DNA of 64,000 nucleotides from Bilabrum cf. latius (lineage: Eukaryota): NCBI GenBank assembly GCA_965178125.1, contig OZ237751.1:620001-684000 (forward strand), written 5' to 3'. This document shows positions 8,780-49,891 of this stretch, one piece after another. The notes under the pieces were generated by a model. The model worked only from the letters and a program-made list of their open reading frames with translations. It was not told the origin of the DNA and did no database searches. The translations under genes and the position numbers were made by a program. Every line of letters begins with the position of its first letter. Positions within the stretch are counted from its first letter, which is position 1.

Positions 8780-9214
8780 ATGGCAGCTGCTGGAGGGTTT
8801 GGCGCTGCGCCGGGCGGAGCAGTTGGTACTGGAACAGGGACAGGGGGTGTTGCCGGTGCTTCTACTGGAAGCTAGCCAATTCAGTATGTCTGTGGAGGTA
8901 AGTGATGCTTTCTAGCCAGCAACTGCTAACCGTGCTGCTTGGTCTCGCTCCATGAATTCGATAGTTTACACCAATGCATTTTTTCTTTTGCGCAGATTGC
9001 AACGCGATCAACCAGCTGCGCTCAAGGGATGACGTTCGATGCCATGCCTGCGGGTACCGGATTCTGTACAAGATGAGGACCCGACGCCGTGAGACAGATA
9101 GAAGCAGCGTAGAAATATGTAATTGCATGGAGATCTTTTGTGTACACACACTCTGTCCTTGCATTCGTTCGACCCAAGTCGTTGCTCGCAGTGACCTAGT
9201 ACGAAGCCAGATAA
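8780..9214 (+). CDS. RPB12: RNA polymerase I/II/III shared subunit RPABC4 (Rpb12); exons 8780-8897, 8996-9088, 9192-9214
   Basis: Spliced product ...GS(TAG=Q)PIQYVCGDCNAINQLRSRDDVRCHACGYRILYKMRTRRLT(TAG=Q)YEAR-TAA matches the Rpb12 zinc ribbon (CxxC...RCxxCGYRILYK...QFEAR). Introns are GT-AG. Confidence 0.95.
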
Positions 9215-9433
9215 CGAGAGTTCTGTCTTGTGGTGATTGCGCTGTTTCCAATAATCGTTTGTATCTTCTGCATGCGCATTCGACCGTACGTAGAGCTACC
9301 AAGCCGTGCAATGTGTGCCGTATCCCAGGCCGCACGCCCCCAAATTGCGATGTGAAGGCGGCCGGCGAGAACGGGGTTGCATTCAACCTGGCAGCAGAGT
9401 GCTTGCTCAGAACGGCATACCTGGCAGCACCGC

Positions 9434-11494
9434 TCACGTGCTCGCACCACCGGCCGCTGCACCGCCTGCCGCGGCAGCACTCTTCGCTGCAGGCGGCCTG
9501 GCAGGCACGCCAGCCTCGATGAGGTGCTTCTTCACCTCGTCGATTCCCACCTCCTTCCTGTGGAAGATCCCGGCCGCCAGCGCCGCTTCGCACCTCGTCG
9601 CCTCGAACACCGCGCTGAAGTGTTCCGGTTTTCCCGCCCCGGAGGACCCCACGACGGGGATCCCAACTCGGTCGCAGATCGCCCCCAGCAGCCCATGGTC
9701 AAACCCCTGCTTCTGACCGTCCTCGTCCACGCAGTTCACGAGGAGCTCACCGGCACCCATCTCCTCACACGCCCCCGCGAAAGCCACGGCACAGAGGTCC
9801 CTCCCCTCCCTCCCCCCGCGGATCGTGCACTGGTACCAGCAGAACTCCTCCCCCTTAGGCCCAGGCCTCTTAGCCTTGACCACGGTCTTGCCAGGTGCCG
9901 CCGATGCGTCCTCCACGTACACCCTGCGAGGGTCCACGCTGATCACGACTGCCTGCGCCCCGTACTTGGCGCTGATCTCCGAGATGGAGGAACTGGGGCT
10001 GGGCTTACCCTCCTCCTTCGCCTTGATGTGGGCCTCTGCAGCCAGCACCGCGTCGGACCCGATGCTGATCTTGTCAGCCCCAGCCCTAAAGTACCTGTCG
10101 GCGACCTGCACCGCGCTCCATACCTTGCCCTCGCTGTCGGTGTACCCCCGGATGCCCCCGCCCACCGTCATAGGCACGAAAATCTTCTCCGAAGCCGCCT
10201 CGAGCACGGCCAGCATGGGCTGGTCGGTCAGCGGGGAGTCCCTAAAGGCAGTAATGTTGAGGAAACACAGCTCGTCACACCCTTCGTCGTAGTAACGGCC
10301 GGCCAGTTCGACGGGTTTGCCCAGGTTCCTAACGCCCCGATCGTCGGATTTCTCCCTGACGTCATACTGGTCCCCTTTGGTTACAACCAGGTCACCAGCG
10401 TCGTTGGACCTGACATCTAGGCATGCAACCACCCTGCGCGTGCGGACCGTGGGCGTCCGCGCCGGGCCAAAAGCAGGCACAGCAGACGCCGCATCCGTCG
10501 CTTCGGCCAGCGGCTTAGACCCCAGCGAGCCATCGAAGGCGCTCGACAGGAACGACCTGAAGATCCCGAGCCCAACCTCGCCCGACTTCTCGGGGTGGAA
10601 CTGCGTGGCGCACACCCTCCCTTTCTGCACGCTAGAAATGTACTCCAAGCCCCCGTAATTCGTCGTGCTCAGCACCCAACCCTTGTTGTCTGCCGAAGGC
10701 ACGGCGCAGTAGCTGTGCACGAAGTACACGGTATCCTTGGCCGCTTTGCTCTCGTCTTCTGACGTCCAAGACTGCATCAGGGGCGACTGCTGCCACGGGT
10801 TGACGCCGTTCCACCCGATCTGAGGCACGGAAATGCCCTTGTCGGCGTCTCCCTCGAACTTCACAACCGTGCCCTTGATCACGCCCAGGCCCGGCTTGCC
10901 GGGGGCCTCCTCGGAGGCTTCGAAGAGCGTCTGCATGCCCAGACAGATCCCCAGGAAGGGCTTGTCGGCAGCAATATACCTGCAACGCATGAAAAATGGC
11001 TAGTGAGTGTGAACAATGCATGCATGGCTATGCATGGCTGGACTGGTAGAGCAAACGTGCTGCTCGGCCGTGTGGAATTCCAATTGGAGGCTAATACTCA
11101 GAACAAACGATCTCACGCTTTGAGTGCATCGGCAAATCCATCCTTAGCGAGAAAATCAGCGGCAGGACCAAACGACCCGACGCCCGGAAACACGAGAACC
11201 TCCGCAGTCTTGATGTCGTCCGCGGTGCGAATGTCCACCACCTCATATCCAACGCGCTTAATGGCATTCCTGCGCATACGAAAACAAATATTTACAAATG
11301 TTCCACAATATTTGCATCGTAGACGAGAAAAAGCGTCATGAAAACCTTTGAAAATGTAAAGATGCACGAGGGGCGAATGATGAATACATGTTTGAAGGCG
11401 TACTGCGTATCCTACAGACTTACCGGATGCTCCGCACGTTACCGGCACCATAATCGAGTAAGTGGACAACTTTTCGATCGCTAACACCCGCCAT
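9434..11494 (-). CDS. HIS7: Imidazole glycerol phosphate synthase, fused HisH-HisF; exons 11494-11424, 11269-11117, 10979-9434
   Basis: Motifs [87 protein letters not shown] stop. Confidence 0.96.
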
Positions 11495-11625
11495 ACTCTC
11501 CCAAATAGGCGATGACGGGATCTTTCTTGCATCACTCGTCAGCGTGTCGTGTATTGTGTATCTGCTCGCTACAATGAACTGCAACCGACATTTGCAAACT
11601 ATTCTCGACTCTCCTGCACGAACGT

Positions 11626-14600
11626 ATGGATTGGTAGCGACAGGGAGGTGGAAATGATGCTGGTATTCTAGGTAGATCCAGCAGGCGAGCTAAGATTCCG
11701 AGCCTAAGACCTAGAGAGCACGATTGGGACGATGTAGGTGAAAGATCACCTGCTTCTCGAGTTGGAATGGACCAGACTGCTTACTCGTTGGTGAACACGC
11801 AGCAAGCAAACGCGGGTCGATCATAGGCATTCCTGTCACCTGTAAACCCGCGCCGTGGGGGCGACGGATTCGGCGTGTTGCAGTCCCCGGGAGCCAGCAG
11901 TGCGTACGGTGCGCTGGACGGAGCTCCGCATGGCACTCCGTACGCAGCTGGAACCATGATACCGTCGAGGCCAGCATCTAGATTAGACCCATTGCCAGCC
12001 AGCACGCGCCCGCCCAGGCTGGCAAGGCAGCAGGGCACGGCTGGCGATGTGCACCGGCCCTCGTTGCGAGCAGGCCCCTCAACGGCAGGGAGCTACTACG
12101 GCAGGGCCGCGGGCGGCGAGCAAATCAAGTCTGCGTACTCCAGGGCGAGCACAGCGGGGAGCCAACCAGGCTCGTACTCAAAACGGTTCGGAAAGGCGGG
12201 GCGAAGACCGGCGGGCCCTCCTCCGGCAGGAAGCCTGCGGGGCACCGCGAGCAAGGGCTCCTCCTCTAGTAGCAGGGCCACTAGCAGCGGTGGAGGGAGG
12301 CTCCCTCAGGATGCTGCACTGGTGCTGCCGAAACGGGGCTACGGCGGGCATTCCGCGGGCATAGGTGGCTCAAAGGAGGAGCCCTACGACTATCAGGGTG
12401 CACCGCACGGTGGTGCAGGAGGCCTTGACACGCAGAGGTCATGGGAGCTGCAGAGCCTCGGGACGGAGGGGTCCATCACCGGAGATCATCTCGGTGTGAC
12501 GAGTGCGAGGGATCTGCAGGGACGGGGGGGTACTCGCGGCGGTGCTATTGTCCCCCACGGGTCCATCGATCGCTAGCTGAGGTACTGCACCAAGCACATG
12601 GGGCAGTGCGACGGGAAGCGGCTCGCCAGCCGGCTGTGCTTCAGCTGCAAGCGACTCACGCCCCAGGATCCCGACTCTGGCTTCTACTGCGACGCGTGCT
12701 TTCGGTTGAGGCACCCGTGGACGCGAGCCGCCCACACCTGGTCCTTTTACGAGCAGAAGCCGCCCCCGCCCAAGGCGGTGAGTGACAACGATCCGGCAGC
12801 CAAGAACATCGCAGTGGCGGAGGCGATGCACAGGGACACAAAGCAGCTGCAGACGATCCTGGGCGAGGCTGACAGGTCCACATTTGAAGAGCGAGACGGT
12901 GCGGCAAAGTCGTGCGACGCGCTGATGGCACGCATGGCCGAGATGCTGGACACGCTTCGGGACGACAAGAAGCGGCTGAGGCACGCGATGGCCAGGAGGG
13001 TGCAATCGCTGTGGAGGATCAGGAGGGCGAGGAGGAGGATCGTCAGCATGATGCGGCTGGTGTGGAGCAAGATCTTCGACCCTTCTTCCCAGCAGTTCTA
13101 CTACGTGAACAGGAAGACTGGTCACGTGCAGTGGGAGAAACCGAGAACCTTCTTTGGCACTTCGTTTGAGATTCCGGACTACCCCACCGTGGAGGCAAAG
13201 GACTTGTCACCGATGGTAGCCGCCCGCATGATCCAATCCGCCGTTCGGGGCTACATGGCCAGACAGAGGTTCAAGATGGCACTGGCTGCCGTGTGGAGAT
13301 CCGCCATCGACCGCGCGTCCGGCAAGAAGTACTACTACAACACGAGAACAGGGGTGGTGCAGTGGAAGAGGCCGGTCGTGATGGGCCCCGACTCACCCAG
13401 GGCCTCCACGAAGGAGGAGAGGCGCAGCTTTCGTGCCATGGTAGGCGACTAGGCGCCCGGAGGAGGGGCCTCCACCGGCCCAGCCACACCGGCCGTGTTG
13501 TCAGCCAGGTCGCATGGAAGCCAGCGGGACGCACTTGGGTCCGCAAGGCATCCACCTCCGGCATCGGCCACTGGCAAGGGCCAGGTGAGGGGAGAGACTG
13601 AAAGGGTTCCATCTGCTGGTGCCGCATAGCACGTGCAGAAGAATGACGAGTACTACGCTCTGCTTGTGCAGCGGCTCTGGCGAGGCTTCAAGGGCAGGAT
13701 CAAGTTCCGGTGCCAGCTGGAGCAGACCATCCTCAAGTACTACGACGAGGACCAGGAAGCGTACTACTACTACAACCAGCTGACGGGACAGTCCAGCTGG
13801 GAGGCGCCCAAGGTTCTGGGCTCCGAATCGATCGTCGCGCTGGATGGGCCCTCGGCTGGGCTGAGCCCAGACGGCACCAACGGGTTCTGGAGAGACAAGC
13901 TCAGGGGGAGGGACCACCGGCTGTACGGCACAGGTCACTCGAAGGAAGACCAGAGAGTTCTCACGGAAACAGTGGGGGGGAGTCCGGAGGGACAGGATAA
14001 CAGCGTGTCGGGTGCAGGCAGCGCCAGTGCAGCGGGCTCGGCTCTCTCTGGCACTGCTGCCGACGATTCGGCCGCATTTCGCCGCTTGCCTGCCTCCATC
14101 GTGTTCCCTGTGGGGATCCGTCCGGGACACCGAGCCGGTGACATGTCGGAAGAGCAGGCGCGGCTGGTGCTGCAGTCCTTCGCTCGCATGCTAGGCGCGA
14201 GGCGCAAGGCCTCCAGGAGAGCCACGCGGGCCTACATCAAGGTGCTGGACGAGCAGTACGGTGTGCCCTACTACTTCAACCGGTACGCTGGCACCTCTCA
14301 CTGGGAGAAGCCGTGGCTGCTGCAGGATCTAGACAAGGACACTGTTTCCGTGGGCAGCATGGCAGAGGACCTGCAGTCAGTAGTTACGTCTGCTCGCTCT
14401 AGCAAGGCTCCGGATGGCTCTGTGGACGCAGCCAAGGCGAGACACGCCAGGGATCGGGGTGGCACCAGATCGATAGCGGGCAGCGCGGGCGGCATGTACT
14501 CTGCCAGAATGTCGGCCAGGACGTCGGCGCGGCCCTCCGCGCGGGAATCGGGTGCGCTGCCGCCCAAGGGCGACGCGGCTGCGAGGCGGGTCTGGTCTGC

Positions 14601-17600
14601 GAGCGGCAGGGCGCGAGGGAGCGGCCCGGGTGCTGCTGGAGGCGCCGGATTCGAGTCGCCTGGGACGGCTGTGGGATCGCTGCCCAAGGCATCGCCGTCT
14701 GCGTCGCCGGTCGGGTCGGGTGGCGCAGCTGTTGGGGCCGGCGCTCGCGGCGGCGGTGCCACTGGCAGCAGCAGCAGCAGCATTGCGTCTGGATCGAGGC
14801 CTGGCTCGGTGCCGGCATCCCCCGCCGATTCCGGGATCGAATCAGCGCTCGTCACGTCGCCGCAGCTGAAGTCTCCGCCTCACCAGACTGTCGGCAATAA
14901 GCATGTCTTCGGCGCGGATGGTCCTCAGGTCACACCCACCTTGGAATCGCCTGCTGATTCAGGTGGACCTGACGGCGGTTTGCAAGCCGGTTCCTTGCCG
15001 GCATCTGCTGGAATCTCTGCCCTGCGATTGCAGTCGATGTGGCGGGGATTTAAGGCCAGGCGCAAGGCCGTAGACATGGCCAAGCAAGTGTACGAGAAAG
15101 CGGTGGATCCCACCTACAACGCTGTCTACTACTACAACAACAAGACGGGCGAGTCTAGGTGGACCAAGCCTATGCTTCTAGGGTCTGACGACTGCGAAAC
15201 GGTTAAGGACGGTTCCAGCCGGGGCGGCGCGGCGTCGGCCCGCAGCATGGGCCCCACTCCACGCGTGGATCCCACCAGCACGCAGGACGCATCGATTCCC
15301 CGGACCCCGCGCGATGCCGGTGAGGAGGCAGTTAGGCGTTTCAGGGCGGCAAGACACCTCTAGCGGTTAGCGAGGGGTATCCGCGGCAGATTGCGGGCCC
15401 GCGCAGCCGTGCGGCGCATGTACGAGAGGGTGTATGACGAGGAGAACAAGGCACACTTCATCTACTGCATGGTGAGCGGAGAGTCGAGCTGGAGGATGCC
15501 CGCGCTGCTGCTGAAGCTGTTCGGCCACCTCGCCACCGTGGCAGAGGCTGCTGCCGCTGCCAGAGAGGAGCTCAAGGAGCTCGGTGCTCCTCCCGAGGAA
15601 GAGCCCACGGAGGAGAGGATGCAGCTCGCACTGGAACGGCTGGTGGGCGACAGGATGTTTGTGACGCCGGCCATGGCTTCCGTGGCGGTCGGGCTGATGG
15701 CACGACCGAACCGGGTTCGCACTGGGCGCCGCGCCGCGGACATGACCGAGGAGCAGGCGGCGGGTCACCTTCAGAGCGCCTTTCGGATGTGGAAGGCGAG
15801 GTCACACGCTCGCGCCAAAGCCACGGTTAGGTGGGTGAAATAGTACGACGACCAGTGGCAGCTGTACTACTACTTTGACATATACAGATCTGAGGCGCAG
15901 TGGCTGTGTCCCGCTCTCCTCAAAGATGAGGAAATCCCTGAGCTCGGGTCGAGGGAAGCAGACGCGCTGTTCCAAGCCGCGCACAAGAGCCCAGAAGCAG
16001 CCAAGGCCGCCATGCAGAGAGCAGCCTCTGTCCGCACCCAGTCTCCGGAAGATGCCGCCGATGCCGCTGTCGCTGCGACGCACGGTCCCGGCGAGACGAC
16101 GCCGTCCGTCGCTGGCTCTGCCTCTGGCTCAGGGGCCAAGTCGGACAGCGCGTCGGAGGGGTCTTCCCTACTCCACCTGCACACGGGGGGGCCAAAGCTG
16201 GGTGCACCCCCCAACGTGGGGTCACTGACCGGCAGGCAGTCGCTCAGGCTCACTAGCAGACCAGGCACGGCGAGGTCACAGCAGTTGGAGACGCACTTGG
16301 AGCAGCGAGGACTCGCGCTCTACAGCCCTGCCAGGCATTCCCGCAGCAAGTCCCACTCTCCCGGGGTACAGGAAATCATGGCATTTTCCAGGCCAGGCAC
16401 GGCTGGCAGCATGGTCTCTGCCCGAACCAGCGCGGACAACCAGTCTGTCATGTCCTCAGGTACCTTGCTCCGGCTCCCGCCGAAGCCTATGGGCACCCCA
16501 GACGCCGCAGGGAGGAATTCTTCCTCGTCCTCTGGCGGTGTGCCCCGACTCAAGTTCTCGTTCGGAGGCGCTGGTGCCAACGGCAAGTCCTTCCGTGGGA
16601 TGCCATTCGAAGGCGCTGCATCAGCGATTGCAGAGGAGGACGAAGATGAGGACGCAGCGGGTATCGGTGGGAAGCAGCACTAGCGTCAGGGTGATCACCA
16701 TGACAGCCGCGAGAGCTCTGCTCCTGCCACGCCCAAGCCCAGGGGGAGCGCAGCGGGGACGCGGCAAGGCGAGAAACCGCACAGTTCCCCGTCCCCGGGA
16801 GCGAAAAGCATCGAGTCACCAAGGAGCAAGAGTGGGGTCACCACCGGGGAACACAGCCGGGCCAGCAGCCCAGGGCTGACTGTGCTCAGCGAAGATGGGG
16901 GCGGCTTCCGGCCGGGCTCCAGTGCCTCCCAGCTGAGGCCGCAGCACGGCGCATCATCAGCTAGGCCTTCCAGCCGACCGCTGTCTCCAGGGACGACTCA
17001 CTCGCGGGCTTCCGATGAGGAGAAGCCCGTGCTGTCTCCACGCTCCGTCGCTTACATCCACACGCAGGAGGCCGCCGCACTGCTGATCGACCGCGGCGTG
17101 TGCCAGCAGAGGACAGACGCGGCGCAGCTTACCTTCGCCTGGTTGAAAGAGGCCGGCTTGCGGGGCTTCTGGAAGAAGGTGGCCAGTGTGACGAGTGAGG
17201 AGGCGGCGCGGACATCCCGTGAAGTTGCCTTGGAGGGCGTGGACGCGGCAGAGCAGGCGCTGCTGGCCGCCGGAGAGCAAGGGGGTGGGGCGGCCGGCAC
17301 GGACAGAGGGGAAGAGATGCTCGGCGGGATGTTCGCGCCCCTGCCTCTCAACGAGGAGAATCCGTCCACCAGGGCGACGGATGTGCTGCTGGATAAAGCC
17401 GACGAGGTGCAGGAGCGGGAGGGCGCGTCACTACTTCAGTTGGGAGGCGCTTCTCCCCCCGCTGGCGGCGTTCAAGCGAGCGGCGCTGCAACGAGCTCCG
17501 GCGGAGCGGAGGGGTTCGGTGTCAGGCAGCTCGCCGCTTCAGTGAGGCAGGATCCCCGCACAGCTGCCGCGTTGGGTGTCGCATCGCAACGCGTGGTAGG

Positions 17601-17982
17601 GGAAAATCAGGCGGGGGTGGGTAAACTCGGGAACGGCGATACCGCCGAGGAGGACGGCGCGCTGGATGCAGCGTCCGTCTCGCGTGCTTCAGTGGGTGGC
17701 ATGAAGGGTAGGGAGAGAGATGGCGCGCCTTTGGATGCAGGGCGCATGGATACAGGCGCACTGAGACAAGACGTGGCTGAGCCTCGTCTGCGGGGAGATC
17801 CCGGGGAGGCGGGAGGTGCTCGCTCAGGAGAAGGTGCTCGAGACGAGGGAGCGAGCATCGGAGGCGACACACTGGCGAGCAGGGGGCTCGAGCCGAGTGC
17901 AGCCGATGGGGTGCAAGAATCAATCGATCGGGCGCGGGAGTTCTATGCCAGGCTCCCTGGAAAGGTTGGGGCCAGGAAGTAA
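11626..17982 (+). CDS. Large WW-domain/IQ-motif repeat protein with a B-box-like Cys/His cluster (~2118 aa)
   Basis: ORFs 11875, 12598, 13633, 15391, 16012 and 16882 are in one frame and joined by TAGs; ends in TAA. Repeated YYYNxxTGxxxWxxP (WW) and IQ-like (IQSAVRG, VQRLWRG, LQSMWRG, L[TAG]RLARG) motifs. Start ATG is tentative. Confidence 0.88.
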
Positions 17983-18145
17983 GCTGTTGCGGCTGGTCAA
18001 CCGATAGTTTGCGACCACGGACAGGAGATGCAACTTCGAGCGTTGCGCCGCAGGCAGGGCGAATTCATACCACTAGCTTGCCAAACAACTTTCGCATCAC
18101 ACTTACTAGTCTAGAACCAAATTCAATTCGATCGTCTTGTGTGAC

Positions 18146-20281
18146 ATGTCAGACGTGCACGAGAGGCTGAGCAAGGCGTTCGCTGAAGGACATCTTGAGT
18201 CGGTTGAAGCTTTGATTCACGAAGACCCCGCGGCGCTGAGCAATAATGCGTACTTTCAGCGATACCTTAATATTGGCATATACCATGGCCATACTGAGCT
18301 AGTCCGCTATATCCTTGAGCTAGAGGAAACGAGTTGCTCCAGCCGATGCGATTGTATCGTGTTGCGTGCAGCCTTGGCTTTAGCGTGCCGGCATGGGCAC
18401 GCTGAAATTGTCAAGATACTAAACATACAATACGGGGCGATCTGTGGGGCCGGGGGAGTGGGTACGCCTGGGGAGCATGCGCGCGAGATGGGCCTAAGTG
18501 GTGCGTGCTAGAACGGGCACACCGAGGTCGTCGAGTACCTCCTCTCCTTACAAGACGATAGCAGAGTTGACGCACGGTACAATAGCAACAATGCTTTCTG
18601 TATGGCATGCCAAGGTGGCCATACAGGCATAGTGTTGCTCCTTCTCTAGCTGCGAGGAGATCGCAGGATAGATCCGACCGCAAGCGGTTCGAGGGCCCTG
18701 AAGTTGGCTGCACAGAACGATCACATCGAAGTGGTGAAGCTATTGCTAGACCTTGGCGGCGGATTGGATGCAATGGTTCTTCCGGAAGACGGAGAACCTG
18801 AGGATGATGCAGTCGACGCTGCCTGTAGTGGCATGTCGGCCCTGTTCGGGGACAGCAGCAGCGAGGAGCCTGAGGAGGAGGATGGTGATGAGGAGGAGGA
18901 CGAGGAGGCGGGACAGAGGGAAGTGTGCAGCGATGATGAGTGCCACGGCGACAGCATGGCCAGCGAAGCACCTGATGCGGCCGATGCCTAGGGCAGTGCA
19001 AGCAGGGCGGCCGCAGGCGGCAGTGGTGGTGGTGCAGCCGACCAGAAAGAGCACGCGGAGGACTGGAGGCTCCAGCACCCTTGCGTCGATGTCACAGTGT
19101 ACAAAAACAATCCAGGGGACTGGGTCGTGCTTCTGGCAGCGGCCAGGGCAGGTGACCTGCAGCTGCTCAAGGACGTGCTCCGGGTGCGCCGCCGCTTCGG
19201 GAGGGAGGACACGCCGAGCTCACTGCTAGGTGCTGCGTCACGTGCAGGCCAGATGGAAGTCCTGCAATACCTGCTCGGATTAGAAGGCAGTGAGGCAGTG
19301 GATGTCCGCTACGGTGGGGATTCTGCGCTTCGTGGTGCGTTCGACTCTTGCAGGCGCGATATAGTAGACTTGCTGGTGACCCACGGTGCAAGCCTCGATA
19401 CGGTGCTTGCGAGCAGCCCCGACCTGCTGCTACACCAGCCGTGCCTGAAGGGAGATATAGGCATGGTGGATTACATATTGTCGCTGGAAGTGGAAGCGAC
19501 CGGGCATCGCGTCCCTCCATTCTACGACGGCAGGCATATTCTCGCGGTAGCGTGCCTGGGCGAGCAGCTCGAGCTAGCCAAGCACTTGCTCGAGGCAGAC
19601 GCGGAGGCCAAGCTCGTCCCACGGACCTCGCTCAACCAAGCCCTATACTCAACTATCAGAAGCGGCAACATGGAACTGCTGGATCTGCTGCTGCGGCAGT
19701 AGGTTGAGCATCTTCGGGTGGACCTGAAGGGCGATTATCACACCTTGTCACCTGTCTACCAAGCCTCCGCTGACCTGAGATCAGACGTCATGAAAGTGCT
19801 ACTTGCCATCGACGATGAGCGGTGGATTGACATGCGCGAGTACGAGGGCCTTGTTTTTCAATTCGCTGCAGAGAGAATGTCGTACGCTGCTGCAGCTGTT
19901 GATGAGTTCTTTCGGGTGGTGATGACCCGCCCAAGGCCAAGGTGGGACGAATCAGAGCGCCTGAAGGGATGGCTTCCTACACGAAAACTCTATCAGAGCC
20001 ATTGCCGCGACTGGGCAGAGCCCTACGAGTACTGGGTGCACTGGCATCCCCGACCACTTGCCAGTCGGCTGTGCATGTTTCGGGCTGCGAGCGACGCGCA
20101 CCGGGACGCAGACATCGCGAGCCATTGCTGTTCGGAGGGCCGCCCACTGGAGCTTTCGAAGCGTATGCGGCTGGGTCGACTTGCGATGGGCGAGAGCACT
20201 TTGCGGGCGCTGCTCGCATCAGCAGAGGCCGGCGAGCACGGAGACTGTGCGGCTGTGATGCGTGAAGTGATCGGCAGGTGA
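18146..20281 (+). CDS. Ankyrin repeat protein (~711 aa)
   Basis: ORFs 18137, 18704, 19097 and 19718 are in frame and joined by TAGs. Ankyrin motifs ACRHGHAEIV, AC[TAG]NGHTEVV, ACQGGHTGIV, AAQNDHIEVV, ASRAGQMEVL; TGA stop. Confidence 0.88.
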
Positions 20282-20368
20282 CTGCTGAACGACAGATGCC
20301 CTAGTGCTCGGTGCATCAAAAATCCCTTGGTGCATGATATTTCACTTGGAACTTCGTTGAACGTGTCC

Positions 20369-30599: not shown

Positions 30600-30723
30600 T
30601 AACTTGGCCGGCCAAGGGGCCAAATCGGTTGGGTTGTAGTGTGTGTGACCGTTGCGGGACCGAATGGGTTAGCTACGGTTAGGGCGCTGTAGCAGCGCCC
30701 ATGGACAAACCGCCGGGGTTGTC

Positions 30724-31462: not shown

Positions 31463-31531
31463 AACAATAATTTGGATGCCGCTCCATTCAGGTGGCAGTA
31501 GATGCTAACCATACGTAACTTAAACTAAGCT

Positions 31532-37168: not shown

Positions 37169-37328
37169 TGGAACAGAAGAACTTGAGAGTTGTTCTGTGA
37201 TAATAATACTTACTTTGTTCCTCTGTTTTTAGGTAAGAGTGGCACGAGTGGTCCGGCGTGCTGGGCTCGGATCAATGTTGCGTGCACTTGCAGGCGCTAG
37301 AATGCCGTATAACTGGAAGTGATGAGCA
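37169..37328. repeat. Split direct repeat B, copy 2
   Basis: Direct copy of 30289-30448. Confidence 0.95.
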
Positions 37329-37362
37329 TATTCACACAAATATATACTCAGATAGGAATAGC

Positions 37363-38720: not shown

Positions 38721-39130
38721 AAGAAGCGCTGATGCGGAGCAGCTGCTTTTTTGGGCGAGCACAGGGAGTGGTCTTGAAACGGAGCTCTCCCTGCAGCCCT
38801 TCATTGCCCCGGCGAGCAGGCCTCGGGGTGCGGTCCAGAGTTTCAATTATCCTGGTCTCGGCAAATCATCGATGCCTCTCGCATGCGGGTTGCGTGTACT
38901 TTTTGCATCTTGCAGCGCGCGCTCGGCGCCATTGGGTCCTTGGATCAACTTCAACCAGGTGATGCGGTTGCTTGCTTGAAGTCCACACGCGCGTTTGTCC
39001 TATTTATTACAGTCAACGCCCCGACCGCGACGGCGTGGCAGCCGCGGCTCCAGCCACCACTGGCAAACGAACCTTGACCGAACCTTGCGAACCATGCCGC
39101 GGCAAAAATTGCTTGCCACACGGCCCAAGC

Positions 39131-40939
39131 ATGTTTGTTGCGACTATTCTTCTTTTCGAGATAGCTCTCGCGTCTAGTTGCAACCCATCGATGCCCTCTA
39201 TGCGGCCTGCCGTCGAAGATCGCCTGTTTCAGAGCCCGACCGTGGAGTCTTTCGTTGCTCTTGTCGCTGACAAAATCAAGGATCCGGACCTGCAAACCCT
39301 GTTCAAGAATACTTTTCCAAATACGCTGGATACCACTGTTCTCTCCCACGTAAGGGCGCCTGCATCGCTGGGGTGGCAGCAGGCCGAGGTTGTTCCTGAG
39401 TAGCAGGGCAACCCCAGCATGCGGCTTGGAACCGAGAGCAGCGGCGTTGGGCTTGCTGCAGACGGTGGGAATGACACATTCATAGTAACGGGGGACATTC
39501 ATGCGATGTGGCTCCGCGATAGTTACAATCAGGTCAAGCCATACATCGATGTGCTGAGTTCGCTCCGCCGAGGCTTTTCGCACGCCAAGCGCACGGGAGC
39601 GACCGCGGCGGGTAGCACCGAGCAGATCCCAGCATGGGTTCTTCACTCGGGTTTGCAAGTAGAGCAGCCCGATGCACTCGACGAGGCGTTCGCTCGAGCA
39701 GCGCTCCGGGACGGCGCAAACGGCGAGGAGCTTCTGTTTCTGGTCAGCGGGCTCATAGCCCGACAGGCGTCCCAGGTGGCCTTCGACCCGTACGCCAACG
39801 CGTTCTCCATCTCGGCTGACGTCCCGAGCCCGCACGCCGACGACTCCACCACCCGCCCGGCATTCGCCGGCACCACCATTGACGCCATGCAGTCGCCCGT
39901 GTTCGAGCGGAAGTATGAGCTAGACAGCCTCTGCGCCTTTCTGAGGCTTTCTGCAGACTACTACGCCGCCACGGGAGACGTGGGTCCCTTTCTCCAGGGA
40001 ACAACGCAGGGGGACGCCTGGTTGCGCGCCGTGCAGACCGTCCTTGCCACCATGAAGCTGCAGCAGATCGACAGCGCCACGGAAGGGGGAAACCCCCCCT
40101 ACTTCTTCCAGAGAACAACGTCAGAGCCCACGGATTCCCTCGAACACGGGCGGGGTGCCCCCTGCAAGCACACGGGGCTGATCAAGACGGGCTTCCGAGG
40201 GAGCGATGATGCAAGCACATTCCCTTACCTTATCCCTTCCAACGTGATGGCGGTGGGAGCTCTTACCCAGGTGCAGGCCGTGCTGAATGGGCCGGCAGGC
40301 GCGCCCAAGCTGGCAGAAGAGGCCCAGGCCCTGGCGAAGGAAGTGTCAGACGCAATCGAAGCGCACGCACTCATCACACCGGCAGCACCAGCACACTCGT
40401 CACAGTCGCTCCCTGCCCAGTACGCCTACGAGATCGACGGGTTTGGGAACGTGTTCATCGCGGACGATGCAAACATCCCCTCTTTGCTCTCCCTGCCCTT
40501 GCTCAAGCACCCAGGCATCAACGCCAGCACGCCTGCCTACAAGGCTACCCGCGAAGCCGTGCTATCCACCCGAAATCCCTACTACTACAGCGGGTCCGCA
40601 GCGTCGGGGATCGGGGGTCCGCACAACGGCCAGGGCTGGATCTGGCCCATGAGCATCGCGGCCCAGTCGCTCACGAGCGAGGACGAGAAGGAGGTGGGGG
40701 AGTGCCTCGGTACGCTCTTGCAGTCGAGTGCGTGCACAGGGCTGATCCATGAGAGCTTTCGCCTGGATTCATTCGGAACGTTTACCAGGCCTTGGTTCGC
40801 GTGGGCGAACAGCCTTTTTGGGCAGGTTGTCGTGGACGTTTCCCGGCGATTTCCCGGGCTGCTCTCGGAGAAGTCCACTGGCGATTCAACTGCAGCTAGC
40901 GGCAACCGGTTGCGTTCTTGGCGCGACCAGCGGCGGTGA
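39131..40939 (+). CDS. Glycoside hydrolase family 125 (exo-alpha-1,6-mannosidase-like)
   Basis: FPNTLDTTV, TGDIHAMWLRDS, ERKYELDSL, FRGSDD, DDANIPSLL, TRPWFAWANSLF; ORFs 38972 and 39419 are joined by TAG at 39401; signal-like N-terminus. Confidence 0.92.
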
Positions 40940-41252
40940 GCAGGTACAACTGCGATAAGTCGTTTATTGATTGCATTGCGAGGGATATTTTTGCGTTTGC
41001 TTGCTTCAATGTGGGATGGCAGAAGGCCTCGAGACCAGTTCAGGCCACTGGTAGCGGCCTCCCAGGCAGCAGCTGTCACCTTGAATCGCCAAAGGCGAGG
41101 CTCATGCTCGCCGCACGACTAGTGCATCACCGGGATGACGCAATCGCACGGAATGAGCAAAGTCGATCGGTGGACTGATAGGGTGCAGTGCACTACAACG
41201 CCCCGGCTGATGGCGAGGATGAAACTGCACTCGCTCTGGTTTATTTCAAGGC

Positions 41253-43255
41253 ATGTGCAGGCTATTATTGTACAAGGTATGAATCAGTCATTCATAAATT
41301 GTGGTCGCTGGATACCTCCATCGGACGCGTGCTTTATCTTGAGTATTTCGTATTTGCACACACCGCAGGGTCGAACCAAGCGGTAGTCAGTCAGAGCGTC
41401 TGACCTCGTGGTGCACCCGTCCCACTCAATCGTAAAGCAATCATTTGCGTGCACGGAGCGCACATAGTCAGGGGCCGGGGGAGTGCCTCCGCAACTGAAT
41501 GGCGATGGGTTCGGTCTTGCATTCTACTCGGAAAGTCGGCAGGATGCCACAGGAACGGATGCGCCCTCAATGAGCGCGAAAGCACCCACTTCTATGGCCT
41601 TTGCTTAGAACCGGGACGAGGTACCGGGCGTCCTTCGGTCTATCTCGCCTGCATGGAACGACAGCAACCTCAGGTCCATCTCTGAGACCATTTTCACGCG
41701 CACTCTCCTTGCTCACGTGAGGGCCGCCAGTCCGGGCAGCTTGGTCTCTGAAAGCGGATGCCACCCGTTTTCAGCTGGACGGTACTCGTTCATGCACAAC
41801 GGATACATTGCTGGGTACAAGTACGTCAGGAAGGCGATGCTTGCGGCAACCTCGGAGCTGGCGTTCGAGCAAGTGCGCAGCGCCGTGGACAGCGAGGCCA
41901 TGTTCGGCTTAATCCTCACAGAAATCGAGAAGGAAGCACCGAGGAACGAGTACCTTTCCCCGGATCGCCTGGGCGACTGCGTGCGCCGATCCATCCGCAT
42001 ACTGGAAGGGATATGCGCGAGTGTTGGGCGAGGAGCTGGTATCGGCTCGCTGCTCAACCTGGTCCTGACAGACGGGAAGAGCGTGGTGGTGACCCGCTAC
42101 GCGATCGGAATGGAAACCACGCCGGCTAGTCTGTACTACGCAGTCGGGACGGATTGGGTTCGGCTGGACGATGCCCGTGGCGACGCTCCCAGTGGTCCAA
42201 GTGCCTGTAGCCGGGCGGGGGCACAGGCAGCGAAAGCAGTAGAAGAGGAAGAACAAGAGGCCAGCGATGAATACACCATGCTGTGCAGCCGTAGACATCC
42301 CGACGTGCTGATCGTCGCATCGGAGAGGCTCACATCCGGCTCATATTGGAGGTCCGTGCCCAAGAACTCCATGATGGTGTGCGACGAGAACGTGGTGCTC
42401 TCCATCCTGCCCGTCCCGCAGCACCGCGTCGCTAGCCATGGGGTTGCCACTGATGGTGTGACGAGTGGTATTATGGACTCCGAGTCGGAAGGAGCCGGTC
42501 CGCTCGCCATCGGCGCCGTCACAAAGATCATCCTTCACCCCCAGGTGCACCCGCGTCCACCCTCAGAGGCCGCTGCTCGGGGAGCCAGAGCCAGCGATGA
42601 CAGCGCGGGCGAAGAATCGCCCGTGCGGACGTATAGTCACCGCAAATTGTCGTAGAGAGACCTTGGCAGAGGTACCGGCACGTTGGGCTTGCTGGCTGCT
42701 GCACCACCCGAGCCAGCCACCGACGCATCGGTCGTACTACCGTCACTGGCAGGGGGGTCTCCAGAGCAAGCGGGCGACAGAGACGACAGCAGCAGTATCA
42801 GTGCAAGCACGGTAGACGTACCGGAAGTAGAATACGTTGCATCGCACGGTGCAGCTGTCGACGACGATTCTGACGAACAGATCGGTGCCGGTGATCCCCT
42901 GCAGGCAACGTTGGCGCAGGACCGCGCATGGCTCGCTCGGAACAACGCCATTCGACAGCTCGCGGAACAGGCGCAATTTGCAAGATAGGCTGCCATGGAG
43001 GCGGGAGAAGGGCCTCCCGCGGGGCATTGTCTCGGCGGTGCGGGGCTACTTCGCCAGTCGCCTGGCAGTCGCCGGGAGTCTGCGGCCAGCTAGAATTCCA
43101 GCAATGGCGGGGCCTCCAGGGCACACCGGATGCTTTCCGACGGAGAACTGGTAGGGCGACTCGCTAGCCTTCGGAGGTAGCCGAGCGAGCTGTTTGCTAG
43201 GCCGATGGCCGGTCCTAGGGCGGGGAGCTCGGTGGAGGTGGAGGGCGGCACGTGA
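41253..43255 (+). CDS. Class II (Ntn) glutamine amidotransferase, DUG3/EgtC-like; exons 41253-41276, 41369-43255
   Basis: N-terminal MCR, NGDGFG, PAWNDSNL, AHVRAA, CHPF, FMHNG, VDSE, VASERL; several in-frame TAGs; first TGA at 43253. Confidence 0.88.
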
Positions 43256-43610: not shown

Positions 43611-44863
43611 TCACTCCTTCAGGACCCGCTTGCCCATGTTCATGAAGCTGTAGGGGTAGGGTGCCTCCACGCTGCTCTTCTCGTCGAGTGCCTTGAGCTC
43701 CTCCTCCGTGAGCTTGGGCGCGTGCTCTCCAGCGTATCCCGCCTTCATGTTGTCCTCCAAGTGGGCCATTTTCTTGGCTCCGATGAGGATCGATGACACT
43801 GGGGCGTGCTTTTGGTCCAGCAGCCAGCGCAGTGCCATGGTAGGGGTGCTCTGCTTCTTGCCCTCTGCGATCGTCTTGAGCTCGTCGATGACGTCCCACG
43901 CGAAGTGGGAGCCGTCCTCGATCTTGGGCAGGTTGTTGCCGCTGCCTCCCGCCTTGGCGTACGTCGCGAGCCTCCCTTCGGATTTCTCGGCCTCTGCCGT
44001 GCCCGGCCTCGCGTACTTGCCGCTGAGCAGGCCACCGCTGAGCGGGCTCCAGGGAACAACGCCCAGGCCCTCCTCCTCGCACACTCGGAGCACCTCCCAT
44101 TCGGTGGAGCGGCACAGGAGCGAGTACTGGGCCTGGACGCACACGGGGCGGGGGCAGCCGTGGCGGTCGCAAGCGTAGAGGAGCTTCATGATCTAGAAGC
44201 CAGCAAAGTTGCTCAGCCCCCAATGGTGGATTTTTCCAGATGCGATCAGATCCCGGAAGGTCATCGCCACGCGGTCCACGTCAACAGACGAATCGACCAC
44301 GTGAATGTACAGTAGGTCGATGGTCTTTACTCCGAGACGCTTCAGGGATCCGCCCACAGCAGTATTTACCCACTTTCGGCCGGTTCCCCTCATGTTTGGG
44401 GTGGGCCCCTTGGGGAACGATAGCTTCGTGGCAAGGACGATTTCACTGCGGACTGCCTCGGTTTGCTTGTTGAGCCACCGCCCGACAATCTCCTCGGATT
44501 GACCACCAGTATCTGCTTTTAATAAGCAATTTAATTTTGCGGGGCTTCATGCAGAGGTAGCGGCAAGACATGTCGCACTAGCACGTCCTGCCTCGAAAGA
44601 TCGCAGTCGGGAAGAGTCTCAGAACGGCAGGTCTCACATCCGTCAGCAGTGTCGATGTGGTTGCCACCGGCGGCAAGGTATGTATCAAGAAGTTTGTGAG
44701 CCGCTTCTTCGTCAACGCCGCCCATCAGGCCGCGCACCGACAGGTCTCCGAAGGTCATTGTCCCGAAGCCTATGGTGCTCACTGCAAGCCCCGATTTGCC
44801 GAGGAAACGATATCCGAGCTTCGGCTTGGCCTCTCCGGCGCCTCCACTTGCTGCTGAAGCCAT
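43611..44863 (-). CDS. Aldo/keto reductase; exons 44863-44638, 44512-43611
   Basis: LGKSGLAVSTIGFGTMTFG, DTADGY, VLATK, SLKRLGVKTIDLLYIH, GLSNFAGF[TAG]IMK, QAQYSLL, PWSPLSGGLL; TGA stop. Confidence 0.94.
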
Positions 44864-45184: not shown

Positions 45185-48100
45185 TTACGGGTTGTAGTTG
45201 GTAAACCCAGCCGGCTGTCCTCCCGGCGGGGATCCAACACCCATGGCAGGTCCTCCACCACCAATCGGTGCCGCAAACCCGGGCCCACCCGCGGTCAGCG
45301 GCTGCGGGGCAGCACCGGCTCCGCCACCAGCTGGTGGCTGCGACAAATTTGCTCCATTCGCAGCAGCTAGGTCCGCACCGGGGTACCCCACCGCCGGTCC
45401 TACAGGCGCACCAGCTCCGTTCTGCCCCGCCCCGGTCATGGGGTTCTGGATCGTCTCCTCCGTGGCGTTGGGCCCCTTGTACGATGAGATGCCCTTGGAT
45501 TTGCTGCCAAAGCAGGGCTCCAAGAACCCCGGCACCGGCTGCTTCATGATCGCGAACCAGTAGTACGCCCCGCCCACACCTCCTAGCAGCAGCACCACCA
45601 CAATCACCGCCGCGATGATCCCACCGGACCCGCCCCCGCCCTTATCCCCGCCGCCTGTGCCGTTACCCGCCGCGGAGGGCGACGGGCTCGAGCCGAAGGA
45701 CGGCGAGACGCTCGGCGTTACGGAGGGCGTGGGCGACACTGATGGGGATGGCGAGGGTGCCAGTGCGCCAGAGATCCCGCCACCGACGTCCCTAAGGTAC
45801 GGCGAGCCGCTGTCGCATAGAGGCTGCTCGTCGGCGGACTGGGGAACAAGGTACAGCTGCGGCAGGATGGAGCATGTGCCAGTCCCCGGGTCGATCTCAC
45901 CCTTGCGCATCTCCAGTCGGAACCCGTTGGATCCCGAAACCCTCTGAAACTCGAGGCACGTGGTGCCGTCCTCGATCAGCTGTGTCTGTCCCGCGTTGTT
46001 CCTCCTGAACTGCCACAGGCTGCCGAAGAGCCTGAGCCTGGAGCTCGTGGATCCCGCGCCTGGCTCCATGGTCAGCAGTGCGGTCATGTTGATCATCTGC
46101 TCCTCGATTTCCTGTAGGTTGGACGTATCAGGCCGGATGGAGTTCCACACCGCCTGCCCTCGAACCGCGATGTCGATGCAGTCGCCCACGTCTGGCCTGC
46201 GCTGGTACACGCCCAGCAACTCGAATGGGATGTTGGCCGTGGCGAACTCGCCGTCGCGGAACTGGAATGGACACGACACCTCCCCGCCGTCCAGCTCGTA
46301 TATGGTCCTGTACTCCATGGGCAGCTGGTCCGGACAGGGTGCGGCAAGATCCAGATCAAGTGCCAGGCCGGCCTCTCTCACCTGCGTGGCATTTGTGCTC
46401 ATGAACATGGCGGGCCCGGACCCATCCGCGCCCGTCCGGCGGATCAGCACGCACTTCCGCGACTGCGTGGGCTGCCCCTCGGAGTCTCTCTCCTCCGGTG
46501 GCACCTCAACTAGCGAAATGACCCTGTACCACCCTGCGTATGGGCCAGACGTGATCTCGCCGGCGCCGATGACCCGGTCCAGCTCTTCTTGCAGGGGCTG
46601 CACCCCGTTGCTAGGATCCACGATCCTCGACGCGACCGACAGGGTGCTTCCTGCGTCCTCAGGGTCCACGTTAATCTCGATGCATCCGGAGGAGCCCGTG
46701 GGCAGCACCTGACTCGTGAAGTTGAGCGTCTCGCCGCCGAAGACGCCCCAGAACTCTTCCTCCACTGTGCCGGGGCTTGGGGGCCCGGTCGGCTCCCTGG
46801 TGCATTTGTTGGACACGGTGCTCTGCACGAATACCTGGGTAGCCCCCGCATCCCGAGCGGCATCCGAGGGACATCCGTCGGGAGTGCTGGCACCCGAGTT
46901 CTCCTGCGACCCAAGGATCATCAGCAGCGTCTTGCCGCCCGCAAAGTCCTCCTCCTTGATGTACCCGCACGTGAGCTGGGAACCCTGGTCAACGGCCTCG
47001 CCCTCGATCGTGAAGTACTCCCTGTGCTCGATGGCCTGGAATTTGATCCAGTCCTTCCACGCGCCTTCAGTGACGTTCTGCGCGGTACTAATGAAGTAGC
47101 TGTCCTCCGTGGCGTTACGGGTGGACAGCTGCCTGTAGATGCGCAGGCTGGTGCTGAACACGTCAACCCCGAGGCAGTCCACGCCCCCTCCCCCAACACC
47201 CTTGAAGTACCCCTGCACACTGGCTGAGAGGGTCGTCCCGGGGGTGTCTCCGGCCGAGGGGCCCTGCGGCCCACGGGCGCCCGGGGCGCGGCCGTCCTCC
47301 ATGCATTGCACTGCAGGCGACTCCCGGTAGCCCACGAACCTGTCCGTGTCGGAGCGCCCCTCCGTTGGGGACTCCATGCACGTCTTGCGCGGGTCTGGAT
47401 TCAGCTGGGCGGTGATCTCCTGCTTTGAGGAATCAAAAAAGAGGTAGGCACACCCCTGGAACGACTCTGCGGTGGACGGTTCCGAGTTGCCTGCCTGCAG
47501 CGTGGACACGCTAATCGGGCCGGTCACGCGGGTCCACCCCGCCCAGGGCTCTGCCACCTCCGAGCTGGGGCTGGGCGTGGGACTCACGGAGGGTGTTGCC
47601 GAGCTTGAAGTACCCGGGGTCGTGCTTGCCGTGGGAGACGGCGAGCTCGTCACATTGGAGGTGGGGCTCGCGCTCGTGGTGGGGGCCGGGGTGGAGCTGG
47701 ATGAGGGCGAGGGCAGAACCACCGCGGTGGCCGTCTCAAACTCCATGCTGTAGTTCTGCTGCACCTTCTGCCCTGATCCGAGCACATACCTTTGCCTGTA
47801 TGCAAGGGATCCCGAGATCCTGCCCCCCGGGTTTCCGCTCGTTTGCCTCGTCCCGAAATCGAGCTGCCTGCAGCCGCGGTTCCGGGAGCCCTCTGGCACG
47901 TCGTCCACAGAGACGAAATGACCACCAAAGAGGCCCTGCGGGTCGGTCAGATTAGCTCTCGAGGTGATCTAGAGAGGGCTGTTGCGAGCGTCGAGGCATG
48001 CCCTTGCAGTATCCGTCGTCAGGTGCAGCAATGACATGCTCCGCATGTCAGCGGGGCAGGTGCCGTCGGTGCGCACTGCCACCATGACGGACCTCCCCTC

Positions 48101-48511
48101 GTCCACGATCCGCAAATAGGCGCACACAAGTGCATCATTGCCTGGCTGGAACGCCTGCGGCCTGCTGTACGTGTTGGTTTCGTACGACGCTGGAAGCACT
48201 GTCACGTTGACCCAACCAGCCCACATCGTGCTGTTGTCGGCCAGTGATACGGTCCTCGAGTTCCTTTGACTGGTCCATCGATTGATACGGTCCTAATTAA
48301 ATGACAACTCCGAAGATACCAGCTGAAAATTATCTAAGCCGGCACTGAAGTCCACGGACACACAGCTTCGTGTGGCAATACTTTGCCCTTCGAATATGGT
48401 CTCAACGTTCCTGTCAAACACCCATTTTCCACCTAGCGTAGGAACATCTTGAGACATTACAGAGAGAGCCAAGGCTCCGAATAACAGCAGCGCTCCCTGA
48501 GAGCGCTGCAT
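45185..48511 (-). CDS. Type I membrane/cell-surface protein with Cys-containing ectodomain modules and S/P/T linkers (~1108 aa)
   Basis: Signal peptide MQRSQGALLLFGALALSVMS; ORFs 48293, 47969 and 45185 share a frame and are joined by TAGs; TM IIAAVIVVVLLLGGVGGAYYW; TAA stop. Confidence 0.85.
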
Positions 48512-48847
48512 GGCTGTTTGCACTCCACGTGAAGTTGCTAGCCGTGATCGTTCTGGAGCGAGTGGATGCATCATGGTGCCCCCACGGATACCTTTGGGTG
48601 TCAACTAGATTATTTACTAGTTAGATACAGTGGTTGTAGGTCCCCTTATCGAGAATTGCACTCCCCTTGCTAATCCTGGCCTGATTTGACTATGACGCGG
48701 CGCTTGGCGCGCCCAACGGAAGGTGTGCGGAACCAACGCGCGGCGCCGATGCATATCCGGAATCCGACAAACAGAATCGTATTTTGCCGCTGAACAACAG
48801 TTTGATTGCTCCTGCTTGACTTTGCTATGTAGAATGATCAATACAGT

Positions 48848-49891
48848 ATGAGTGGGGTGGCGAGATAGGCGTGGTTGGCCGCGAGGCCTTTCGTTGCGGG
48901 TGCGATGGCAACCACCGGCGCTGTGATCCTTTCCAATCCGGCTGAGACTGTGAAAACCAGGCTGTAGCTTGCGAGAGAGCTAGGTGTATCATCCGGTGGG
49001 GCTCAGTACCGGGGCTTTTTCGATGCTTTCCGCTAGATTGTTCGCAACGAGGGTCTGGCAGGTTTGCAAGGCGGGCTGGCGCCTGCGATCTTGTTCTAGG
49101 TCGCGATGAATGGGACCCGGCTTGGATCGTACCCATTCTTTGAGAATTTTTATAGGACCGCGCTGGGCTTGCCTGAACACGGTTAGCTGGGTCGGGATGA
49201 TGGGGCAGGCCAGATGCAGAGCAGGCTGTCCACCTTTGGTGCTAAACTTGGCGCTGGCGGCACGGCAGGCATGCTTGGTGCGTTTGTCGGGTCACCGTTC
49301 AACCTCGTGAAATGCAGGTTGCAAGGGCAGAGCTCGCACTTCAAGGCCAGGGAGAGCTACAACTACTCTGGATTCGGCGAGGCGTTGAGGGACATCTACA
49401 GAGAGGGCGGGGTCCGAGGGCTGTGGCGGGGCGCCACGGCCTCCATGATGCGAATAGCAGTGGGAAGTGCGGTGCAGCTGTCCGTGTACGATTCAATCAA
49501 AGGAGCTATCCTGCATTGGACCGGCGCGTCCGAGGGGGTCGGCGTTCACCTGGGAGCCTCCCTGCTAACCGGAGTTATCGTCACGGTGTGCATGAATCCA
49601 TTGGATGTCGTAAGCACACGTGTGTACAATGCCAGGCCTGGATTTTACAAGGGTCTCGGAGATTGCTTCCGACGGACGCTAGCGGCAGAGGGCGTGACCG
49701 GACTCTACAAAGGTCTCGCCGCCCACTACATTAGGCTGGGTCCCCACACCGTGTACACGTTTGTTTTGCTGGAGCAATGCAAGATTCTTCTGGGGATACA
49801 ACCGCGGTAGGTGAGCAGAGCTACAGCTGGAAGCTCAAGCGGTGTTGGCAGTGTGGCTGCCACTGGCACGGGGTCCGACAAGTCTGCATGA
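48848..49891 (+). CDS. Mitochondrial carrier (SLC25), OAC1/SLC25A34-35-like
   Basis: Three carrier signatures: NPAETVKTRL[TAG]L, SPFNLVKCRLQ, NPLDVVSTR; also GLQGGLAPAILF[TAG]VAMNGTRLG and RLGPHT. 3' end assumes readthrough of TAG at 49808 to TGA at 49889. Confidence 0.9.

Follow-up and report, generated by a model that had tools for sequence, protein, structure and literature searches.

A probable UAG glutamine codon alongside UAA and UGA stops in a GC-rich 64-kb nuclear sequence of Bilabrum cf. latius

Introduction

Nuclear genetic codes that split UAG from UAA are rare; besides a few ciliate lineages, two reports name a single fornicate, a single rhizarian, and a single green-algal genus (PMC5304391, PMC11687900). 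These sources give UAG as glutamine, with UAA kept as a stop, in Iotanema spirale, Protocruzia tuzeti, and two phyllopharyngean lineages, and they give UAG as leucine in a rhizarian (exLh) and as serine in Scotinosphaera (PMC5304391, PMC11687900). Amoeboaphelidium protococcarum is cited as using both TAG and TAA for glutamine (PMC6299283, PMC5304391, PMC6394959). Here we analyzed a stretch of 64 kb from Bilabrum cf. latius (contig OZ237751.1, positions 620,001 to 684,000; hereafter the window), in which UAG very probably encodes glutamine, leaving UAA and UGA as the terminators. Support for this reading came from alignments with homologues and among internal paralogues, from an orthologous locus, from spliced RNA contigs, and from the gene ends. 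All results were obtained from this single window and from one 10-kb metagenome contig of a relative (L001). The window has a GC content of 56–65% and zero N, and it comes from the nucleus of a eukaryote whose DNA is rich in GC and poor in introns.

Iotanema spirale (Panek et al. 2017, PMC5304391) resembles the window in having UAG for glutamine and both UAA and UGA as stops. It is an anaerobic metamonad, whereas the window encodes a mitochondrial carrier and histidine biosynthesis at a GC content of 56–65%. The window proteins grouped with stramenopile, cercozoan, or fungal sequences, unlike Iotanema, and the commoner stop was TGA in the window (10/16) compared with UAA in Iotanema (PMC5304391). 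The ciliates Protocruzia tuzeti and two phyllopharyngean lineages likewise reassigned UAG alone to glutamine (McGowan et al. 2024, PMC11687900). Unlike these ciliates, the window is a 64-kb multi-gene stretch of high GC content with introns of 98–154 nucleotides (nt), and the DNA run gave contigs of up to 225 kb. Phyllopharyngean macronuclei contain gene-sized chromosomes.

Amoeboaphelidium is also a non-ciliate with a stop-to-Gln change, and the carrier tree placed the window beside Fungi, where the aphelids sit. It differs in that TAA encodes glutamine there and is a terminator in the window, and the HisHF and amidotransferase proteins point to stramenopiles or Cercozoa. The public runs in which the window sequence is strongly represented are all from 2025. 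The window as Amoeboaphelidium DNA was rejected because TAA ends genes in it and none of its markers linked it to aphelids. The rhizarian exLh and Scotinosphaera share with the window the uncoupling of UAG from UAA in a non-ciliate nuclear genome, but their amino acids are Leu and Ser, whereas the window points to Gln. Genetic code 15 of crAss-like phages (PMC9523058) shows the same assignment, with TAG as Gln and TAA and TGA as stops; these are bacteriophage genomes, whereas the genes of the window are eukaryotic and contain spliceosomal introns. Full-text literature searches, with subscription papers and supplements outside their scope, gave no description of a GC-rich non-ciliate with this code.

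Results and Discussion

Open Reading Frames under Alternative Codes

Read with the standard code, the window had no stop-to-stop frame longer than 928 codons. Reading TAG as sense opened non-overlapping frames of 2727, 2135, 2059, 1786, 1782, 1172, and 1143 codons. With TAA or TGA as sense, nothing comparable opened beyond the satellite region (31.5–36.2 kb), and TGA as sense gave repeat and antisense frames only. Every frame is open in the satellite, so the long open frames seen there under any code are spurious. Frame 0 of 15 frames (16,668 codons) contained 112 TAG, 496 CAG, and 187 CAA, with 0 TAA and 0 TGA; out of phase, frames 1/2 of the same 15 contained 162/136 TAG, 53/63 TAA, and 292/367 TGA. 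UAG made up ~14% of the Gln-like codons of these frames. The carrier, ankyrin, TmcB, FG-GAP, and amidotransferase proteins had in-frame TAGs inside their Pfam domains. A preliminary description of this DNA, made from its letters, had named seven in-frame TAGs (8873, 9197, 48965, 49097, 44193, 15361, and 18509) and a set of TAA and TGA gene ends. On frame check, all seven positions were correct and all the listed ends were real frame ends. The genes and frames are as follows.

1–8181, minus strand: frame with no Pfam family, 2727 codons, running off the low end of the window, 20 in-frame TAGs; longest standard-code piece 615 codons
8780–9214, plus strand: RPB12/RPABC4 gene, exons 8780–8897, 8996–9088, and 9192–9214; sense TAGs at 8873 and 9197; TAA 9212
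9434–11500 (upper bound approximate), minus strand: HisHF (imidazole glycerol phosphate synthase), introns 10980–11116 and 11270–11423; Pfam His_biosynth and GATase in the frame 9434–11143; last exon with 0 TAG in 513 codons; TGA 9434
11578–17982, plus strand: IQ-motif and WW-domain protein of seven modules, 8 TAGs including 15361 in an IQ motif; TAA 17980; Pfam WW (five) and IQ
17765–20281, plus strand: ankyrin-repeat protein, 7 TAGs, with 18509 (codon 249) inside a repeat; TGA 20279; Pfam Ank_2, E 1.4e-35
20677–26853, plus strand: TmcB-like TPR membrane protein, 15 TAGs; TGA 26851; Pfam TPR_TmcB, E 1.6e-16
27284–28036, minus strand: PLAC8-family gene, 2 TAGs, one of them 6 codons ahead of TAA 27284; Pfam PLAC8
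28641–29903, plus strand: BNR/sialidase-like gene, 0 TAG; TGA 29901; Pfam BNR_2
37237–38720, plus strand: multi-exon gene with no family assigned, last exon frame 38040–38720, TGA 38718; frames only, with putative exon joins
38963–40939, plus strand: GH125 alpha-mannosidase, 1 TAG (codon 147); TGA 40937; Pfam Glyco_hydro_125, E 1e-131
40940–43255, plus strand: class-II glutamine amidotransferase, 8 TAGs; TGA 43253; Pfam GATase_4/6; 2166 homologues
43611–44546, minus strand: aldo-keto reductase (AKR), last exon frame, TAG 44193; TGA 43611; Pfam Aldo_ket_red and PDB alignments
45185–48613, minus strand: Ser/Thr/Pro-rich membrane protein with no family assigned (the 45185 gene), 3 TAGs within the first 215 codons; TAA 45185
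48806–49891, plus strand: mitochondrial carrier of SLC25A34/35 or oxaloacetate-carrier type, TAG at codons 9, 21, 54, 77, 98, 127, and 335; TGA 49889; Pfam Mito_carr (three)
50281–53796, minus strand: frame with no Pfam family, 1171 codons, 7 TAGs; TAA 50281
54051–59408, minus strand: FG-GAP repeat membrane protein, 17 TAGs; TAA 54051; Pfam FG-GAP
58654–63999, minus strand: second FG-GAP repeat protein, 17 TAGs; TGA 58654; Pfam FG-GAP (seven); tandem paralogous modules

The TAG share of Gln-like codons varied by gene (15 frames; chi-square 36.6, 14 degrees of freedom, p 8e-4). The HisHF last exon and the BNR gene had a share of 0, GH125 and the 45185 gene had 0.03–0.05, and the carrier had 0.41; the lowest shares belonged to the genes with the highest GC content at third codon positions (GC3). 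The uneven share was read as TAG being a non-preferred codon; a cost of decoding could also fit.

Residues at the TAG Positions

The carrier alignment comprised the best 120 of 155 homologues and had 272 well-filled columns. At the TAG54 column (nt 48965), Gln was present in 108 of 110 filled rows, and at the TAG98 column (nt 49097) in 114 of 114. Columns with ≥90% Gln numbered 5 of the 272, and the window has TAG at two of them and CAG or CAA at the other three. With three carrier TAGs in well-filled columns, placing at least two on these five Gln columns by chance had a probability of ~8e-4 (hypergeometric). The UCP1 and UCP2 structures also showed Gln at both the TAG54 and TAG98 columns.

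Inside the IQ-WW protein, the seven modules gave an internal comparison, and the IQ position was Gln in six modules and TAG (nt 15361) in one. The AKR TAG (codon 118) was opposite His in one bacterial AKR and Gln in another. The FG-GAP tandem modules (66% identical) were compared by explicit alignment, resulting in TAG partners of Q (2), D (2), L (2), E (1), and R (1) and one TAG–TAG pair. This replaced a self-BLAST of the frames, which aligned mostly low-complexity Ser/Thr/Pro stretches and gave zero Gln partners. In the amidotransferase, an N-terminal alignment of 90 homologues starting with MC located TAG149 and TAG176 within the conserved N-terminal domain, between the catalytic Cys region and the NGDGFG motif; these two and TAG223 occupied variable or gappy columns. 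The yeast RPB12 residue at the second TAG column of that gene is presumably Gln.

Related Metagenome Contig

A scan with the carrier found L001, a metagenome contig of 10,317 bp with a GC content of 54–61%. Amidotransferase, 45185-gene homologue, and carrier follow one another in the same order in L001 and the window. The L001 carrier was 77% identical to the window carrier, the 45185-gene ortholog was 59% identical, and the orthologous C-terminal half of the amidotransferase was present. The aligned codons were as follows.

Window carrier TAG54: L001 TAG
Window carrier TAG98: L001 TAG
Window carrier TAG77: L001 CAG
Window 45185 gene TAG107: L001 CAA
Window 45185 gene CAG546: L001 TAG
Window 45185 gene CAG784: L001 TAG

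At well-aligned columns, the non-TAG partners were Q (3), T (2), R (1), E (1), A (1), and S (1). With substitution frequencies taken from the same alignments, Gln was the best-fitting residue for TAG (log likelihood −20.3), compared with Thr (−25.0) and Ser (−25.5). Three further TAGs lay within the Pfam match of an L001 amino-acid transporter. On these codons, at least one related organism evidently shares the reading of UAG as Gln. That UAG means glutamine had been proposed in the preliminary description, and the carrier columns, the six of six sister IQ motifs, and the fit against L001 all agree with it.

Two database proteins extend the comparison. P0002, the closest to the carrier pair, starts at a Met directly after the TAG98 column; opposite TAG335 it has Gln, and its tail beyond that point resembles the window tail in length and composition. 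P0241 is a 92%-identical fragment of the amidotransferase in another public assembly.

Transcripts and Splicing

Assembled contigs, not reads, of four public runs (X5–X8) were compared over 8001–28000 of the window, a comparison in which rare variants are dropped by assembly. The two RPB12 introns, 8898–8995 (98 nt) and 9089–9191 (103 nt), both GT..AG, were spliced out in X6, X7, and X8 contigs, and exactly these introns had been predicted from the sequence in the preliminary description. Both HisHF introns were absent from X6 contigs and one from X8, and the DNA run X5 retained all RPB12 and HisHF introns. The introns began with GTAAGT or GTGAGA and finished in CAG. We called X6–X8 RNA because their contigs were spliced and, in X6, broke at gene ends. 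The candidate joints 9615>12758, 10225>10580, and 12418>18886 were rejected as repeat artefacts, with sides of only 20–24 nt.

Three X6 contigs (11619–18070, 18080–20301, and 20458–26899) showed 0 differing letters and 0 gaps against the window. They broke at gene borders and ended 88, 20, and 46 nt past the closing TAA or TGA. One frame covered 99, 99, and 96% of them with TAG as sense, compared with 27, 32, and 19% under the standard code; TAA as sense gave the same values as the standard code, and TGA as sense gave 35, 66, and 19%. TAG was unchanged in the spliced contigs of three runs and in one DNA run, with no other letters over 8001–28000. The presence of TAG in mRNA, a check suggested in the preliminary description, was thus seen at the level of assembled, spliced contigs.

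Gene Ends

Among 16 complete genes, TAA was the end of 6 (9212, 17980, 27284, 45185, 50281, and 54051) and TGA of 10 (9434, 20279, 26851, 29901, 38718, 40937, 43253, 43611, 49889, and the newly added 58654). The preliminary description had named common terminal use of TAG as a result that would speak against its proposal; none of the 16 needs TAG as a stop.

The spliced RPB12 frame has 77 codons and a stop. The best match of its exon 2 to chains of Pol II subunit K/RPB12 had an E of 4e-9, and 7 residues follow the exon-2 block before TAA; in PDB eukaryotic chains this distance was 7 residues in 11 of 12 and 8 in one. The second RPB12 TAG (9197) stands 4 codons ahead of this TAA (9212). In the 45185 gene, TAA stands at the same residue where the L001 ortholog has TGA, and the L001 carrier is closed by TAA (6483–6485). 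For GH125 and AKR, TGA came within 4–33 residues of the end of the PDB alignment (GH125 aligned to residue 625 of 658), and two transcript contigs finished 20 and 46 nt after a TGA. These results are in line with the earlier claim that UAA and UGA are still stops; for UAA the evidence consists of 6 TAA ends in one window.

Alternative Explanations

Several observations weigh against UAG as a plain glutamine codon. The sample is a single 64-kb window and a single 10-kb relative, the support stands at the nucleotide level, and neither sequence contains a tRNA or eRF1 gene. X6 carries the automatic label ‘probably DNA’, no run with the window sequence is catalogued as RNA, and the RNA nature of X6 is an inference from splicing. 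The zero counts of in-frame TAA and TGA are partly circular because the frames were defined by those codons. Many TAGs stood on variable or gappy columns with non-Gln partners, and a handful on informative columns. The carrier TAG77 column was variable (T 42, V 16, A 15, and K 11 of 113), and TAG9, TAG21, TAG127, and TAG335 were in gappy columns (28, 38, 13, and 59 of 120 rows filled). Within the IQ-WW protein, a further TAG of the seventh module faced I/A/Y/V/A/V; the amidotransferase TAG149 column held E 16, P 15, Q 11, and D 11; and the GH125 TAG147 was in an unaligned insertion.

The 3′ ends gave further points of this kind. In 4 of 15 frames, a TAG stood 6, 25, 27, or 28 codons before the final stop. 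The window carrier runs 26 low-complexity codons past TAG335 to its TGA (49808–49891), and the L001 carrier has its TAA one codon from the aligned TAG335 position. These late TAGs and the L001 carrier end make occasional UAG termination near 3′ ends possible. They fit a dual UAG, that is, glutamine inside genes with termination near some 3′ ends or highly efficient but incomplete read-through, as with the context-dependent codes known from some ciliates and Blastocrithidia, and the uneven TAG share (p 8e-4), lowest at the highest GC3, fits costly decoding. We nevertheless regard a dual UAG as unlikely. The four late-TAG frames are close to the ~2.7 expected from the overall TAG density, P0002 has Gln at the TAG335 column with a similar tail, and no gene needs a TAG stop, the conserved C-termini coinciding with TAA or TGA. 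The carrier tail could have been gained by read-through of a former stop, or it could be lineage variation.

A code with both UAA and UAG as glutamine and UGA as the sole stop, of the ciliate/Hexamita type attributed to Amoeboaphelidium protococcarum, has a slim chance. An algal parasitoid next to Fungi is cited with TAG and TAA as Gln (PMC6299283, PMC5304391). The carrier tree set the window clade beside Fungi, and a run labelled ‘algae metagenome’ has 5% of the sampled words, which is a lead only and no evidence of habitat. TAA is rare in the GC-rich window, hence sense TAA could be scarce. Against such a code, TAA closes RPB12 exactly at the family C-terminus and closes the 45185 gene where the L001 ortholog has TGA. 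One transcript contig ends 88 nt after TAA 17980, ahead of the next TGA (18144), and the tail opened there by a sense TAA would overrun the contig end. As an additional sense codon, TAA joined no two coding frames outside the satellite and added only tails of 17–125 codons. The count of 0 TAA against 187 CAA in 16,668 in-frame codons, partly circular as stated, points the same way.

That UAG stands for a residue other than Gln (Glu, Leu, Ser, Tyr, Lys, or pyrrolysine) is very improbable. The TAG partners in the paralogue and orthologue comparisons did include D, L, E, R, T, S, and A, and nuclear codes with UAG as Leu and as Ser exist (PMC5304391, PMC11687900). The sole near-invariant columns with TAG are Gln columns (108/110, 114/114, and 6/6), Gln was the commonest partner and the best fit in the orthologue comparison, and TAG swapped with both CAG and CAA between orthologues. 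TAG as a true stop, with the in-frame TAGs coming from pseudogenes, assembly errors, or RNA-edited sites, has nothing in its favor beyond the expectation of the standard code and can practically be dismissed, given 112 in-frame TAGs against 0 TAA or TGA, identity of the RNA and DNA contigs of four runs with the window, TAG kept at invariant-Gln columns in a second organism, and genes that are expressed and spliced.

Protein Relationships and Origin

The nearest named relatives of HisHF were stramenopiles (Cafeteria 60%, oomycetes and brown algae 56–60%), with Chlamydomonas and Desulfobulbales-type bacteria similar. In a 40-row tree, the window HisHF joined Cafeteria and unnamed sequences on a long branch, with a Shimodaira–Hasegawa-like approximate likelihood ratio test (SH-aLRT) value of 82 (95 for the 11-row clade). 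The 40-row carrier tree gave a clade of the window, L001, and six environmental proteins (95), which adjoined chytrid, blastoclad, and zoopagalean fungi (89) and was separate from ochrophytes. The two single-gene trees therefore disagree, one placing the window in a stramenopile clade and the other next to Fungi. Besides environmental proteins, the closest in the searched collections were 62% (HisHF) and 57% (carrier) identical. For the amidotransferase, the named members of the 20 top clusters were Platysulcus tardus, Cercozoa sp. M6MM (a metagenome-assembled genome), and Soliformovum irregulare.

No ciliate was the nearest named relative of the carrier, HisHF, or amidotransferase. The nearest named relatives, taken from single genes, were stramenopiles, Cercozoa, early fungi, and Amoebozoa, which is not what ciliate macronuclear DNA would give. 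Together with the 64-kb multi-gene stretch and the GC content of 56–65%, this agrees with the earlier remark that the DNA does not look like that of a ciliate. Judged from its sequence, the window is evidently neither ciliate-like nor metamonad-like. An independent and so far unpublished origin of UAG-to-Gln with UAA and UGA stops, in a GC-rich, intron-poor lineage outside ciliates and metamonads and shared by at least two species (one from environmental sequence), is a tentative reading that has slightly less than an even chance. The kind of code is already known, and the lineage is probably new.

The window case adds a further data point: here the genome is compact and GC-rich, the genes are expressed and spliced, and at least one relative shares the code. 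It bears on the evolution of eRF1 specificity and suppressor tRNAs and on base composition as a driver. If the origin is independent, this would be a rare non-AT-rich and probably culturable system for studying the uncoupling of UAG from UAA. Most long genes of this genome and its relatives would be broken if annotated under the standard code, which recovered only 19–32% of three transcripts. Metagenome gene callers seem to start the relative’s carrier (P0002) just past the TAG98 column.

Proposed Mechanism

Neither a tRNA gene nor an eRF1 gene was found in the window or in L001, and Rfam at gathering thresholds gave zero matches in the window. As these genes are missing from the data, we infer the mechanism from other reassignments. 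UAG would be decoded by a tRNA-Gln whose anticodon is CUA and whose probable ancestor is tRNA-Gln(CUG). Recognition of UAG by eRF1 would be lost or weakened, with recognition of UAA and UGA kept. New TAG codons may arise mainly from CAG by C-to-T changes, in genes under weak codon-usage selection.

Neighboring Genes and Repeats

Residues 760–1330 of the TmcB-like protein had no homologous protein at E ≤ 1e-5. In a Protein Atlas search, the portion of the 45185 gene that lacks TAG had a single match, with an uninformative score of 0.75. The AKR gene is missing at the syntenic place in L001 (1240–1792), where ~550 bp lie between the neighbors, and the best solved relatives of the window AKR are bacterial-type AKRs. 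The window AKR looks like a candidate for insertion, loss, or transfer. For HisHF, a 90%-identity cluster-mate of the homologue P0140 is filed under a Symbiodinium sp. KB8 assembly.

The GH125 and amidotransferase frames are in the same phase with one TGA between them (40937–40942); we took the shared phase as coincidence because there is no homology across the junction. The family Met-Cys start of the amidotransferase is not in frame (the frame reads Ala-Cys), and an upstream exon or intron is therefore likely. The frames of the two giant tandem FG-GAP genes overlap by 755 nt (58654–59408) in different phases. The upstream FG-GAP gene contains tandem duplicated modules of ~450 residues each, with 66% identity.

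The satellite block occupies 30720–37065. About 50 copies of an 85-bp unit span 31589–35960 (85–91% matches), and 167-bp repeats stand at both flanks, at 30720–31162 and 36283–37065 (98% matches).

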